In this document: piece by piece, positions 47,587 through 50,500 of the stretch
Numbering within the stretch: the first letter of the stretch is position 1
Layout of the letters: the number at the start of each line of letters is the position of its first letter
From: Euglena gracilis
Lineage: Eukaryota
Direction of reading: 5' to 3'
Assembly (NCBI GenBank): GCA_039621445.1
Contig: CP154954.1
Span: 30,074,395 to 30,138,394 of the forward strand
DNA: 64,000 nt
Made by a program: the position numbers and the translations under genes
Notes under the pieces: generated by a model
What the model was told of the DNA's origin: nothing
What the model saw: only the letters and a program-made list of their open reading frames with translations
The model's database searches: none

Positions 47587-50500
47587 TCAGGAAGCGAGGA
47601 ACTGCATAAACGCCTGCTTGTTCTGGACAGGGGTGGTTGCCTCCCGGGAACCATCTCAGTGGCCAATGGGGCCGACCCAACCCTCCCCAAGGAGTTCGAA
47701 ATGCCATCCCGTAAGACCTTCCCAGCCTGCCCATAGCCAGCCCCACCCAAACACGGGAAGGGGAGGGCGAACTTCTTGAAAAATAAATCTGCTTGAGAAC
47801 GCTGGGAATTCTGCAGATAACAAACTCTCACACGCACGCGTGCGCGCGCTAACGCACCCACGGACACAGATAACGTGTGTGGTGGTGTATGCCTCCGTGG
47901 CACACATATCTGCACACATTGACAACTGGCTCTGGAGGACCTCCTCCGCCCTTCCCCTTCACTGCTGGGCTCTGAGCCGGGCCTCGGCCGTGGGCCGCCC
48001 GAGGTCCTTGCGGGCGCCGGTGCGCACCCGCACCTCCAGCAGCGCCGGCCCCTCCGCCGCCCGGAGCCCGGCCACCGCCGCCGGCAGGTCCTGCTGGGCC
48101 TCGCAGCCAAGCACCTCTGGTCAGCCATGCCCTTGGGCCCAGCATCGCCCAGCATCGCTCAGCATCGCCTTTGAAGCCCTTAGAGGTGCACCTCCTGCAC
48201 CTGCATCCACTCAGATACCTGCATCCTGAGCATCCAAAACAGCACCTGCAACCATTTCATCTGTATTTGTCCACTTTTGGTCATTTATCCAGGTGTACAA
48301 CTTTGGCCACTTTTGGCCACTTTTGGCCACTTTGCCCAACTTCACTCAGCTTTGGCCGCAAGCTCCCTTGATTCCGAAATTTATTTGGCCAATCCAGCAT
48401 CTGCATCCACCGCACAAACCCAGTATCTGCAGAAATTGCACCTTGTCCAATGACCGCATCCACTGCATCTTGTCCAACATCTGCATCTTGACTGGCATCT
48501 GCATCTAGTCCAGTGTCTGCATCTTGTCAAATATCGACATCTTGTCCAAAATTTGCATCATGTGTGGAATCTGCACCCTTGTCCAATATCTGCATCTTGT
48601 CCAGTAGCTGCATCCATTTGCATGTTGTCCAATATCTACAACCACTGCATCTTGTCCAGTGTGTGCATCTTGTCCAGTACCTGCATCCATTGAAACTTGT
48701 CCAAATATCTGAATCTTGTCCAGTATCTGCATCCACTGCATCTTGTCCGGTATCTGCATCTTGTCCGGTATCTTCATCTTGTCCAATATCTGCATCCACT
48801 GCATCTTGTCCAATATCTTCCTCTTGTCCAGCATCTGCATCTTGTCCAGCATCTGCAACCACTGCATCTTGTCCAGCATCTGCATCTTGTCTAGCATCTG
48901 CATCTTGTTCAGCATCTGCATCTTGCCCATTATCTGCACCTTGCCTGATGTCTGCATCCATTGGCTGCACAAGACCACAAAAACCCCAAAAGAGCAACCA
49001 AAAATGACCTAAAATGGATTGAAATAACCTAAATTAGCTCAAAAATGCCGACAATGCCCACAAAAGATTCACAAAAATCCACAAAAAATACCCAAAATCA
49101 CCAAAATGGCACAAAATGGCCAAAAATGCCATAAAAATGTTCACATTGACCCAAATTAGCCCAATATTTGCCCAAATCGCCCCAAATTAGCGAAAAATTG
49201 ACCCAAAATGGCCAAAATGGGTGTTATATTGGAGACTTGAGGGAAAATTATCCTAAAAATGGATTTAATTCTTCAAACCATACAAAAAATGCCAGCATCG
49301 CCCAGCATCGCCCAGCATCGGAACCCCACCTCTGGTCTCCAAAAATCCAGCATCGCCCAGCATTGCTCAGCATCGCCCAGCATCATCAGAGGTGCTTGCT
49401 CGCAGCGCGGCAGCACCGTGCGGTACGCGCAGGCCGCCGCCACCCCCGGCAGCGACACGTCGAAGCCTGCCGGGGAGGATGGGGGGGGGGCAGGCTTCAG
49501 GGATTACTTCAAAGACCCCGGGGGGGGGGGGAGGTGGTCCCACAGGCCGGCTGGAAAAAAGTGCTGGCTGGTACCCGGCTGGTACCCCGAAACCAGGCAA
49601 AAAGCCCAATTGATCTGTGGATAAAAACCCAAAACCTCCTCAAAAATGCCATTTTGGGCCATTTTTTACCCCTTTTCCAAAAACCTTCGGCACTTTGTGC
49701 TGAAATATTTTTTGGTCCAGTCCAGCTTCGCCAGGTTGTCCTCAACTTTATTTCAGCAGACCCCCTCAGGGGGGGGGGGTCCGCAACCCAGGGTCTGCTG
49801 GCTGGCTGGACCCCCGGGGGGGGGTCACCTCCAGCTTTAGGATACCCCTGGCGGGATGGGGAGGGGGGAGGTCGAGGGGAGCAGGTGGTTCCTACCAGCC
49901 CCGTTCCCGGTATTTTTTCCAGGCGCGAGCGACTGGATCCCGGCTTTCCGAATCACCTTTTTTTGTTTGACCCCCAACTCCCTGCCAGGCCCGAGTTATT
50001 CAGCTGTCAAGGGCTCCAAACTGCAAACTGGGTGGGATTAGCCAACCCCCAGGGTGCTGGGGGTGGGGGGGCAATAACGCGGAGAACCACAACACGTAAG
50101 CAAAAAACGCGATGGAAAGAGAGAGGCCGAATGCAGAGGTTGATGTTAAATGATCAAAATTGTGAAAATCCTCGACAAAATGATCCCTTTGAAAAACACT
50201 GCCCACCCCCTACTGGAACAAAGGGCACTGGCAGGGCTGTATGGGAAGATTCAGTTGGTCATCTTCATGGTCCTAATCAACTGACAAGAGGACACCCCCC
50301 CCCCTGAATGTGAAAGACACATTCTTGGAATGCCGAGCAAGCACACCCGCTGTGGGCTGCCCGCCGACAGAGTCATGCGCCCCGTTGTTGATGACGACGT
50401 GCTTGAAATTCTGCCGTTGGGAGGGAGGGACAGAAACGGCGACACCCTGCAGCACACACATACCTGCAGCGGCCGCCCGGGGGGGGGGGGGGACGTCTCC

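Follow-up and report, generated by a model that had tools for sequence, protein, structure and literature searches.

The window, that is, the whole 64-kb stretch of Euglena gracilis DNA that was analysed, carries on its minus strand a phosphonopyruvate decarboxylase gene, one coding exon of which is interrupted by an inverted-repeat element. The exons match the TIGR03297 profile colinearly (profile positions 191-229, 232-266, 267-286, and 312-345), and this profile comparison shows the spliced frame to be colinear with phosphonopyruvate decarboxylase. The features around the interruption, in gene direction, are as follows.

49399 to 49465, minus strand: upstream exon of the phosphonopyruvate decarboxylase gene (..FDVSLPGVAAACAYRTVLPRCE)
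49399 to 49406, minus strand: target-site duplication, copy 1, GCTGCGAG, encoding part of ..R-C-E
48103 to 49401, minus strand: non-conventional intron, 1299 nt, in the register whose 5' and 3' spacers measure 3 nt and 5 nt
48108 to 49398, minus strand: nonautonomous inverted-repeat element, 1291 bp, GC 0.46
49387 to 49398, minus strand: 5' terminal inverted repeat, CAAGCACCTCTG, intron positions +4 to +15
49292 to 49384, minus strand: subterminal 10-bp tandem repeats near the 5' end, unit GATGCTGGGC (gene strand), in two arrays (49347-49384 and 49292-49320)
48463 to 48943, minus strand: central imperfect 18-bp tandem array, about 28.6 copies
48137 to 48169, minus strand: 10-bp subterminal repeat GATGCTGGGC near the 3' end, in direct orientation to the 5' arrays
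48108 to 48119, minus strand: 3' terminal inverted repeat, CAGAGGTGCTTG, intron positions -17 to -6
48100 to 48107, minus strand: target-site duplication, copy 2, GCTGCGAG
47990 to 48099, minus strand: downstream exon (AQQDLPAAVAGLRAAEGPALLEVRVRTGARKDLGRPT), TIGR03297 profile positions 312-345, E = 3.4e-4

Structure of the insertion

The perfect 12-bp inverted repeat (49398-49387 and 48119-48108 on the minus strand) is abutted at both outer edges by GCTGCGAG, and in a repeat search of the window the terminal pair was 12 nt long and 100% complementary. This confirms the first-pass annotation, which had described a perfect 12-bp inverted repeat flanked on both sides by an 8-bp duplication; the two copies lie at 49406-49399 and 48107-48100. 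Terminal repeats flanked by a duplication of fixed length, here 12 bp and 8 bp and both perfect, are the anatomy of a nonautonomous (MITE-like) class II element. The element plus one 8-mer amounts to 1299 nt, or 433 x 3. Apart from read-through of the tandem repeat, the element contains no ORF, and an Rfam search of positions 47500-50000 gave no match up to E = 1. DNA word depth in its central part was 271,597 versus about 30-45 in the exons, a thousands-fold difference.

The 12-mer repeat, allowing up to 1 mismatch, has two matches in the 64-kb window, which are the pair itself. No other copies of the 120-nt ends were found in the window, which counts against the explanation preferred below, and the 23-nt right end had 0 matches in a metagenome scan. 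No empty allele was seen; a contig of DNA run X11 (47140-48133) spans the 3' junction in its filled form, although rare variants are lost from contigs.

Removal of the element from the transcript

The RNA evidence consisted of raw reads of run X21 and contigs of the RNA-like runs X15 and X16. A joint from 48099 to 49399, which skips 1299 nt and has 8 ambiguous letters, was supported by 3 raw X21 reads and by a single contig from each of X15 and X16, and no contig of the DNA run X11 contained it. The junction that had been proposed from the sequence is therefore used in RNA. The spliced ORF across the joint reads ..VLPRCEAQQDL.., so that removal of 49401-48103 does restore the frame without GT-AG, as had been claimed.

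Nine registers within the repeat yield an identical mRNA, and removal of 49401-48103 is one among the nine; the cut point can thus slide within the duplication, as the annotation had supposed. On the gene strand, the register ends are CA..AG, GC..GA, AG..CG, GA..GC, CG..TG, GC..CT, TG..GC, CT..GG, and GC..TG, none of which is GT-AG or GC-AG. Removal without such ends in any register is the behavior of a non-conventional intron. The transcripts lack precisely the element and one copy of the duplication, which agrees with the earlier suggestion that splicing takes the element plus exactly one copy.

Further downstream, a second RNA-supported intron (47639-47989) leads to the true protein end, ..DLGRPT|TTPVQNKQAFMQFLAS. 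The C terminus ..AEARLRAQQ followed by a stop, which had been read from the genomic sequence, falls within this intron and is withdrawn.

The experimentally defined spacers of non-conventional introns are 3 nt and 5 nt, and the 3' exon follows a purine rule (Nomura 2025, PMC12501133). In the register with a 3-nt 5' spacer (GAG|CAAG...CTTG|GCTGC|G), a helix with 12/12 Watson-Crick pairs is predicted to start from +4/-6. In the same register, the 5 exon and 3 intron nucleotides at the 5' border match the 5 intron and 3 exon nucleotides at the 3' border in 8/8 positions, and the 3' exon begins with G, in line with the purine rule. The 3-nt 5' spacer, the 5-6-nt 3' spacer, and the purine-first 3' exon (Nomura 2025) are thus all found here, while the RNA fits the 8 other registers equally; this register is probably the one that is cut. 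The idea that the 3-nt and 5-nt unpaired ends are the two parts of the duplication gains from this agreement with the published spacers and from the identity of the 8-mers in that register. The predicted duplex of the two 40-nt ends has a free energy of -41.2 kcal/mol; 300 shuffles gave -28.2 +/- 4.1, and a single one got as low as -41.7.

The published splicing code, CDG at +4..+6 and CH'G at -8..-6, is absent: the letters are CAA and TTG, and the +6/-8 pair is A-T versus the G-C required. The CAG/CTG to which the first-pass annotation pointed is found at the inner end of the repeat rather than at +4. A hand check of the register table found CDG/CH'G in none of the nine registers. The code was found in 61.2% of non-conventional introns (PMC12501133), and nonconforming introns are therefore common; single substitutions in CAG or CTG abolished splicing of the intron tested there (PMC12501133).

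Related elements and introns in the window

Further elements with a similar architecture and one further non-conventional intron were found in the window; no strand is assigned to them.

20219 to 21346: E1, 1128 bp, with the terminal family of E4 (CAGGGTTGTATGGGAA) and flanks CCCCCGGG/CCCTCGGG (7/8)
39986 to 40309: intron B, an RNA-supported non-conventional intron of a neighbouring gene, with ends CAGGGTTC/GAACCCTG at +4/-6
41870 to 44085: E2, 2216 bp, 21-bp perfect inverted repeat CAGACATTCATTTAGTGTGGT, duplication GTTCCCCC (8/8)
42158 to 43129: E6, nested in E2, 19-bp repeat CAGGGATCCTCACACGTCC, 7-bp flanking repeat CGTAAAG
52959 to 53414: E4, 456 bp, 19-bp perfect inverted repeat CAGGGTTGGATGGGAAGCC, perfect 8-bp duplication CCCCTCTT
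59606 to 59911: E5, 306 bp, inverted repeat CAGGGCGGTCC(T/A)TAAG, duplication CCCAGTGG (8/8)

E4 lies within a GT-AG intron (51679-54640) of the phosphonopyruvate decarboxylase gene, and the elements therefore behave like insertions rather than like structures that owe their shape to splicing alone. The terminal motif of E1 and E4 occurs 7 times versus 0.21 expected. This family is represented in the window by 2 full copies and 3 solo ends, i.e., it is multicopy, as MITEs are; an E1-like end lies in E2 at 43158. In blastn comparisons among six elements, E1 and E4 had both ends in common, the 1291-bp element matched E1 only in low-complexity interior repeats, and intron B matched none. The proposal of an intron-generating transposon family is upheld in part: four further elements of like architecture are present, but the repeat of the 1291-bp element itself occurs as a single pair in the 64-kb window. 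The flanking repeat of E6 is 7 bp rather than 8 bp, which also counts against the preferred explanation.

The inverted repeats of E2 and E5 run one base into the flanks by chance. The 46 single metagenome matches to the E1/E4 terminal consensus (18 nt, one N) were discarded as chance-level; beyond the seed, they agreed with the best of four references at no more than 12 of 27 letters. When ORFs were compared across the empty sites of E1, E2, E4, and E5, the three top-ranked frames for the positive control did not include its true frame in this GC-rich DNA.

The window holds 1017 inverted-repeat pairs with any start. Flanking 8-mers were identical (8/8) in 4 pairs and matched at 7/8 in 1, and all five begin with CA. 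No pair reached 8/8 when the flanks were displaced by 4, 8, or 11 nt, and none of 2949 pairs did so in ten block shuffles. Perfect direct repeats abutting an inverted repeat of at least 11/12 numbered 4 at k = 8, 1 at k = 7, and 0 at k = 9-12. These counts show that, in the window, the flanking duplication is specific to length 8. In a scan restricted to CA starts, one displaced control gave two 8/8 pairs, both within the tandem array 14655-14800.

In the 18.6 kb examined for RNA-supported introns, 4 were neither GT-AG nor GC-AG. Their flanking 8-mers agreed in at least 7 of 8 positions in two cases and at 4/8 and 2/8 in the other two, the latter counting against the preferred explanation. Intron B has flanking 8-mers identical at 7/8 and, in the minus-strand reading, carries the full published code (GGG-CAG..CTG-GGGAT|G); the gene that contains introns A and B can be translated without interruption from either strand. 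The joint from 50630 to 50874, which also has a 7/8 repeat, was rejected as a non-conventional candidate: once placed in register, it has GC-AG ends and a pyrimidine tract rich in C, and is hence conventional. In the conventional GC-AG intron of the decarboxylase gene, 7/8 flanks arise from the CAG|GCC splice consensus, indicating that flanking repeats are not specific to non-conventional introns.

Proposed origin and removal of the intron

We consider it probable that a hAT-like element inserted in the decarboxylase exon and is removed by the euglenid non-conventional pathway. A nonautonomous class II element would have landed in a protein-coding exon of this gene and duplicated its 8-bp target, GCTGCGAG. 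After transcription, the 12-nt terminal repeats would pair with each other in the pre-mRNA to give a helix, whose formation in vivo is presumed from the sequence. Two single-stranded tails, each a copy of the duplication, would thereby come to lie next to each other. The non-conventional machinery would then measure from the helix, making the 5' cut 3 nt upstream of it and the 3' cut 5 nt downstream, and join the exons. The intron would be released as a circle, by analogy with published work. Because 3 + 5 = 8, the element and exactly one copy of the duplication would be lost and the preinsertion frame restored.

Transposon superfamily

The 1291-bp element is most likely a nonautonomous class II DNA transposon of the hAT-like superfamily, to judge from its duplication and from the tips of the elements around it. 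The structural features of hAT elements include an 8-bp target-site duplication and the terminal motif YARNG (Novick et al. 2011, PMC3014272). The duplication has this length (PMC3014272), but the tip CAAGC fits only letters 1-4 of YARNG, the fifth being C. All six elements and intron B begin with CA. CAGGG tips, which agree with YARNG, are found in E1, E4, E5, E6, and intron B, i.e., at 5/7 termini; the E2 tip, CAGAC, does not agree. Like hAT nonautonomous elements, those described here have 8-bp duplications, 11-21-bp inverted repeats, CAG.. tips, and subterminal short repeats. hAT elements prefer targets of the form nTnnnnAn. Unlike them, the 1291-bp element has the tip CAAGC, and the target 8-mers here are GC-rich and off that preference. 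No transposase was found among the 10 longest of the 34 ORFs of at least 230 amino acids in the window, the only matches being to RVT_1 (reverse transcriptase). The hAT reading put forward at first pass is thus backed by the 8-bp duplication and weakened by the CAAGC tip and by the absence of a transposase from these 10 ORFs.

Other superfamilies, among them Zisupton and Novosib, also make 8-bp duplications. That the insertion occurred as described but through such a superfamily (Merlin, P, or others) is the least improbable of the alternatives, and we rate it as unlikely but deserving serious weight. The tips CAAGC and CAGAC, which misfit YARNG, and the lack of a hAT transposase among the 10 longest window ORFs speak for it, as does the presence in E. 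gracilis of Merlin families with 8-bp target-site duplications (PMC8101967). According to the same paper, however, all Merlin families start with 5'-GG, have inverted repeats of at least 24 bp, and make 8-9-bp duplications (PMC8101967). The Merlin elements of E. gracilis thus resemble the present element in their 8-bp duplications and differ from it in their GG start and repeats of at least 24 bp; here, the repeat is 12 bp and the start is CA. The CA start of all six elements and intron B, together with CAGGG at 5/7 termini, argues for hAT.

Alternatives to a DNA transposon

Double-strand-break repair with filler DNA would explain the 8-bp repeat as fill-in of a staggered break and the inverted repeat as part of the filler or as a product of later selection. 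A precedent is the non-conventional intron 4 of gapC in E. agilis ACOI 323, which was acquired recently and has direct repeats of eight nucleotides at its junction (Milanowski et al. 2016, PMC4770533). Its authors took the repeats as a mark of break repair and showed presence/absence polymorphism there (PMC4770533). The very abundant, satellite-like interior of the 1291-bp element would also suit filler DNA. We nevertheless regard this origin as improbable. The perfect 12-bp inverted repeat starts exactly at the inner edge of both 8-bp copies, and the same exact abutment is seen in 3 other elements of unrelated sequence, one of them in a GT-AG intron, where selection for non-conventional splicing does not act. 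Moreover, the repeat length is sharply 8 (k = 8 gave 4 cases, k = 9-12 none).

Spread at the RNA level is very improbable. Here, an excised circle would be reverse-spliced or reverse-transcribed into new sites, with the nonexonic elements as by-products, and release of non-conventional introns as full-length circles has indeed been reported, as cited in a 2024 review (PMC11282704). An RNA copy would, however, bring 3 + 5 nt of its old site and so would not produce a perfect duplicate of the new one, whereas here the two 8-mers do not differ, and one is protein-coding and conserved with the enzyme family. E4, moreover, carries an 8/8 duplication within a spliceosomal intron.

Coincidence, with the inverted repeat serving as the needed terminal helix and the direct repeat due to chance or codon-level similarity, is hardly credible: in E. 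agilis, 84.4% of introns have short direct repeats at their flanks (PMC12501133), and the local GC-AG intron reaches 7/8 through its splice-site consensus, but 8/8 was seen in 0/2949 shuffled pairs and 0 pairs in three displaced-flank controls versus 4 observed, with the caveat that the CA-restricted control gave its two 8/8 pairs in the array 14655-14800.

Wider implications

The origin and removal of euglenid non-conventional introns have been open questions since the 1990s. A MITE origin was hypothesized by Milanowski et al. 2014 (PMC3935182) and reviewed in Mob DNA 2024 (PMC11282704), where the paired ends are called "TIR" and the junction repeats "TSD-like"; so far, the idea has been based on such short inverted repeats and junction repeats. 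Previous publications thus cover the MITE origin, the TSD-like repeats, the 3/5 spacers, and an 8-nt repeat at an intron of recent origin. In the excerpts of PMC3935182, PMC11282704, and PMC12501133, no TSD length, 3 + 5 = 8 relation, or superfamily name was found, and the literature searched gave no explicit statement of a "3+5 = 8-bp TSD" or of a hAT link.

The locus described here is a clean worked example of the published transposon-origin idea for Euglena introns. The insertion is young enough for the inverted repeat and the duplication to be perfect, and RNA proves that one copy of the duplication is retained. Combined with the published spacers, a loose hypothesis becomes numerical: the duplication is 8 = 3 + 5, with CAG tips. 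With its CAA/TTG, the 1299-nt intron is also a natural case of splicing that departs from the published code.

It is conceivable, with somewhat less than an even chance in our estimation, that all euglenid non-conventional introns, which make up about 70% of E. agilis introns, are hAT-like insertions with 8-bp duplications, and that the 3-nt and 5-nt spacers exist because their sum is the length of the duplication. If so, the pathway would be an RNA-level excision system matched to one transposon superfamily. An exonic insertion would be harmless in either orientation as long as the target 8-mer has a purine at its sixth base, and the excised RNA circle would be predicted to contain a complete 8-nt target copy between the abutted element ends.

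Comparison with known systems

Like other euglenid non-conventional introns, the 1299-nt intron has no GT-AG ends, a helix predicted from +4/-6, 3-nt and 5-nt spacers, a purine-first 3' exon, and slidable borders. It differs from those published in that a perfect 8-mer abuts a perfect 12-mer, in the nonexonic look-alikes in the same window, and in its CAA/TTG letters. With intron 4 of E. agilis gapC, it shares 8-nt direct repeats at a non-conventional junction (PMC4770533).

Outside the euglenids, the introners of Micromonas, Aureococcus, and dinoflagellates and the MITE-derived introns of Fritillaria are, as described in the review PMC11282704, also nonautonomous DNA transposons with inverted repeats; they turn into introns when they land in exons, and their duplication allows the exon to be restored. 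They are spliceosomal: the element brings one splice site, and the other is recruited from a duplication of 3-5 nt (PMC11282704). Unlike in introners, no spliceosomal signals are found here, the cuts would be set by distance from a predicted RNA helix, and the duplication is 8 bp. A hAT-type case is the Ds-derived intron of maize, reportedly described by Giroux in 1994. With no GT-AG or GC-AG register, the 1291-bp element is not an introner; since the duplication makes its removal exact, it works in an introner-like manner without belonging to that class.

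RESULTS

Anatomy of the element in the decarboxylase gene

An inverted-repeat element of 1291 bp (E3; 48108-49398, minus strand) was found inside the phosphonopyruvate decarboxylase gene; together with one flanking 8-mer it measures 1299 bp, or 433 x 3. When the minus strand was re-read, the coordinates and letters of the first-pass annotation proved correct.

49406-49399, minus: 8-mer copy 1, GCTGCGAG, preceded by ..CTGCCGC
49398-49387, minus: 5' 12-mer, CAAGCACCTCTG, followed by an interior of ~1.27 kb
48119-48108, minus: 3' 12-mer, CAGAGGTGCTTG, a perfect inverted repeat of CAAGCACCTCTG
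48107-48100, minus: 8-mer copy 2, GCTGCGAG, followed by GCCCAGCAG..

The 12-mer occurred as one pair only in the 64-kb window (≤1 mismatch allowed), and the 8-mer occurred six times versus 0.69 expected, two of the six being the E3 flanks. Both ends carry 10-bp subterminal tandem repeats in direct orientation and the centre an 18-bp array; E3 has no coding capacity, its sole ORFs being read-through of that array. E3 had no match in Rfam, its end had none in a metagenome scan, and no second copy of its 120-nt ends was found in the window. DNA word depth in run X11 was 68,000 to 271,000 over the interior versus ~30 to 45 over exons, indicating that the interior is made of extremely abundant repeats; this depth is distinct from the copy number of E3 itself.

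Removal of E3 from RNA

Runs from the same organism were aligned to 39000-57600: raw RNA-seq (X21), RNA-like contigs (X15 and X16) and DNA contigs (X11). A joint from 48099 to 49399, which skips 1299 nt and leaves 8 letters ambiguous between its sides, was supported by three X21 reads, one X15 contig (depth, 261) and one X16 contig (depth, 110.6). The joint was present in none of the X11 DNA contigs, and one of these (47140-48133) spans the 3' junction of E3. This indicates that the mRNA lacks E3 plus exactly one 8-mer and that genomic DNA, sequenced in an independent run, retains both. The first-pass annotation had predicted removal of these 1299 nt, and its observation is confirmed by the repeat anatomy and the RNA skip together. 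The nine possible cut registers yield identical mRNA, and none of them has GT-AG or GC-AG ends, in agreement with the claim that GT-AG borders are lacking here.

The gene context

The other introns of the decarboxylase gene, all seen in the same contigs, were as follows.

49466-50345, 50411-50513, 50998-51562 and 51679-54640: GT-AG introns
50631-50873 (in register), minus: GC-AG intron; its pyrimidine tract is C-rich, and it holds two CAGGGTTT motifs
47639-47989, minus: intron C, non-canonical, RNA-supported, coding

Three of the four GT-AG introns start with GTGTG, the reported E. gracilis consensus (PMC11170887). A 107-nt C-rich run lies within a GT-AG intron at 51255-51361, where reads seem to be cut. 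Exons joined computationally gave an open frame (..VLPRCEAQQDLPAAV..DLGRPTTTPVQNKQAFMQFLAS), and single exons matched NCBIfam TIGR03297 (phosphonopyruvate decarboxylase) in colinear order.

Matches of single exons to TIGR03297
Exon 50996-50874: positions 191-229, E = 8.3e-13
Exon 50630-50514: positions 232-266, E = 4.7e-11
Exon 50410-50346: positions 267-286, E = 2.3e-7
Exon 48099-47992: positions 312-345, E = 3.4e-4

The 22-residue exon directly upstream of E3 had no profile match when searched alone, and by arithmetic it corresponds to positions 287 to ~310, within one residue. The colinear matches and the fitting 22-residue gap indicate that E3 was inserted within conserved coding sequence and that its removal restores that sequence. 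The C-terminus given in the first-pass annotation was wrong, its stop codon falling in intron 47639-47989; this does not affect the E3 finding.

Direct repeats abutting inverted repeats in the window

Two scans covered the whole window with intron positions ignored. In scan (a), identical k-mer pairs 40 to 5000 bp apart were required to have, immediately inside them, an inverted repeat of at least 11/12 with the first two perfect. It gave 21, 12 and 8 matches for k = 3, 4 and 5; 3 for k = 6, two of them E2 and E5 shifted one base outward; 1 for k = 7, which is E6; 4 for k = 8; and 0 for k = 9 to 12. In scan (b), the flanking 8-mers of 1017 inverted-repeat pairs with any first letter were compared, and four pairs had 8/8 and one had 7/8 identical flanks; these five elements, E1 to E5, all start with CA. 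Flanks displaced by 4, 8 and 11 nt gave no 8/8 cases and 2, 2 and 1 cases of 7/8, and ten block shuffles (2949 pairs) gave none and one, respectively. A scan restricted to CA starts returned the same five elements. Of its six displaced controls, one yielded 8/8 cases, two in number and both within 14655-14800, a 24-bp tandem array that is the source of false matches in displaced controls. Long (CA)n arrays lie at 38546-38862 and 57633-57875.

Inverted-repeat elements in the window
E1, 20219-21346: 1128 bp, inverted repeat CAGGGTTGTATGGGAA.., flanks 7/8
E2, 41870-44085: 2216 bp, inverted repeat CAGACATTCATTTAGTGTGGT, flanks 8/8
E3, 48108-49398: 1291 bp, inverted repeat CAAGCACCTCTG, flanks 8/8
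E4, 52959-53414: 456 bp, 19-bp inverted repeat CAGGGTTGGATGGGAAGCC, flanks 8/8
E5, 59606-59911: 306 bp, inverted repeat CAGGGCGGTCC.TAAG, flanks 8/8
E6, 42158-43129: nested in E2, perfect 19-bp inverted repeat CAGGGATCCTCACACGTCC, flanking repeat of 7 bp (CGTAAAG), not 8

E6 carries 10-bp subterminal tandem repeats at each end (TCCGTGATTT) and is followed by an E1-like left end at 43158. A relaxed scan gave two further candidates, 35816-37764 (CATGTTGC/GCAACATG, flanks 7/8) and 63208-63296 (89 bp, CAGGCTGA/TCAGCCTG, flanks 6/8).

E1 and E4 have both ends in common. Their terminal 16-mer occurred seven times in the window versus 0.21 expected (≤2 mismatches), comprising two full copies and solo ends at 25096, 43158 and 50232, and the tip CAGGGTT occurred 23 times versus 7.8 in shuffles (maximum, 15). 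The shared ends and repeat counts indicate at least one multicopy inverted-repeat family with 8-bp duplications in the window. No partner right end was found for the three solo ends (CAGGGTTGKATGGGAA family, plus strand), and that at 50232 sits in GT-AG intron 49466-50345. The architecture is common to several mutually unrelated elements in the window, and the same kind of element is also found outside exons. E4 lies within GT-AG intron 51679-54640, which is removed whole in RNA, indicating that its inverted repeat and duplication did not arise from selection for nonconventional exon splicing. One X15 contig joins 49396, the inner edge of the right inverted repeat of E3, to 53384, the right end of the 456-bp E4, with 15 other letters between; the contig reflects either a different locus carrying both kinds of end or a chimera of the assembly graph.

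Other nonconventional introns

Four RNA-supported introns without a GT/GC-AG register were present in the 18.6 kb examined: the E3 intron and introns A, B and C.

39650-39894: intron A; the published CGG/CCG derivative fits on the minus strand; flanks only 4/8
39982-40305: intron B; slide 7; CAGGGTTC/GAACCCTG at +4/-6; flanks CCCATCCC/CCCATCAC, 7/8

Intron B satisfies the whole published code if read on the minus strand; translations of its gene are open on both strands. Its end duplex was -34.8 versus -22.6 ± 4.1 for shuffles. Intron C (47639-47989) showed no CDG/CH'G or other fit to the code, its end pairing was no better than that of shuffles, and its flanks agreed at 2/8. The first-pass annotation had suggested asking whether the 8-mers at the two junctions of such introns are identical more often than chance. 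Such an 8-mer rule was supported by two of the four, the E3 intron (8/8) and B (7/8); A (4/8) and C (2/8) are uninformative or old, and a sample of four is much too small to generalize from. The conventional GC-AG intron 50631-50873 also had 7/8 flanks (CCCAGGCC/CTCAGGCC), because both its junctions resemble the CAG|GCC consensus. A flanking repeat taken by itself is thus no diagnostic feature, which calls for caution in repeat-based tests.

DISCUSSION

E3 is best read as a young, nonautonomous, hAT-like transposon inserted in an exon; the known euglenid nonconventional pathway would remove it, leaving one copy of the 8-bp duplication. The termini that start CAGGG (E1, E4, E5, E6 and intron B) fit the hAT terminal motif YARNG (Novick et al. 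2011, PMC3014272), from which E2 (CAGAC) and E3 (CAAGC) depart at the fifth letter. Merlin elements with 8-bp duplications have been reported from E. gracilis, but every Merlin repeat starts with GG (PMC8101967), unlike the CA starts of the window elements. The window has 34 ORFs that reach 230 aa or more, and a search of the 10 longest gave only reverse transcriptase and no transposase. Judged from these termini and ORFs, a hAT-like nature is the best guess for E3 and its look-alikes, not an assignment to the superfamily. The reverse transcriptase matches (RVT_1) were at 4218-7133 (plus; 971-aa frame; E = 6.7e-22) and 1839-3059 (minus; 406-aa frame; weak, 0.0047) and probably belong to retrotransposon copies that are inverted relative to each other.

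[quoted passage not shown] In 2016, Milanowski et al. described a recently acquired gapC intron whose direct repeats are eight nucleotides long and suggested double-strand-break repair (PMC4770533). A 2024 Mobile DNA review equated the paired ends at +4 to +6 and -8 to -6 with TIRs and the junction repeats with TSD-like sequences (PMC11282704). Nomura et al. (2025, PMC12501133) reported that 84.4% of introns carry direct repeats, left the "slidable" ones aside, established the 3-nt and 5-nt spacers and again suggested a MITE origin. The idea in the first-pass annotation is thus a published hypothesis. Full-text searches of the literature, supplements excluded, turned up no stated duplication length, no equality of 3 + 5 with that length and no superfamily assignment; supplementary data such as the chart of slide lengths in Nomura et al. 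and the tables of introns in Milanowski et al. may bear on these points.

In E. gracilis knock-ins (Nomura et al. 2025, PMC12501133), the 5' spacer had to be exactly 3 nt and the 3' spacer 5 nt, with +1 tolerated; a helix behind the CAG/CTG motif was required, and wholly synthetic 50-bp N3-CAG-helix-CTG-N5|R sequences were spliced. In the test intron, splicing was lost on single substitution in CAG or CTG, and the sections examined describe no compensated change of the third motif pair. In the register with a 3-nt 5' spacer, the E3 intron reads GAG|CAAGCACCTCTG...CAGAGGTGCTTG|GCTGC on the gene strand, then exon G; 12/12 pairs run from +4/-6, a 5-nt spacer follows on the 3' side, the downstream exon opens with a purine, and the two 8-mers of the proposed rule are 8/8 identical. 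The predicted duplex of its 40-nt ends is -41.2 kcal/mol versus -28.2 ± 4.1 (300 shuffles; best shuffle, -41.7). E3 thus shares the geometry and the purine rule of the published code but differs in having CAA/TTG in place of CDG/CH'G. The code holds for 61.2% of E. agilis nonconventional introns (PMC12501133), so exceptions are common, and the E3 intron is one RNA-documented exception. E3 is an unusually clean case of an already-known intron kind and gives a hypothesis now ten years old a sharper, numerical form that can be tested at once.
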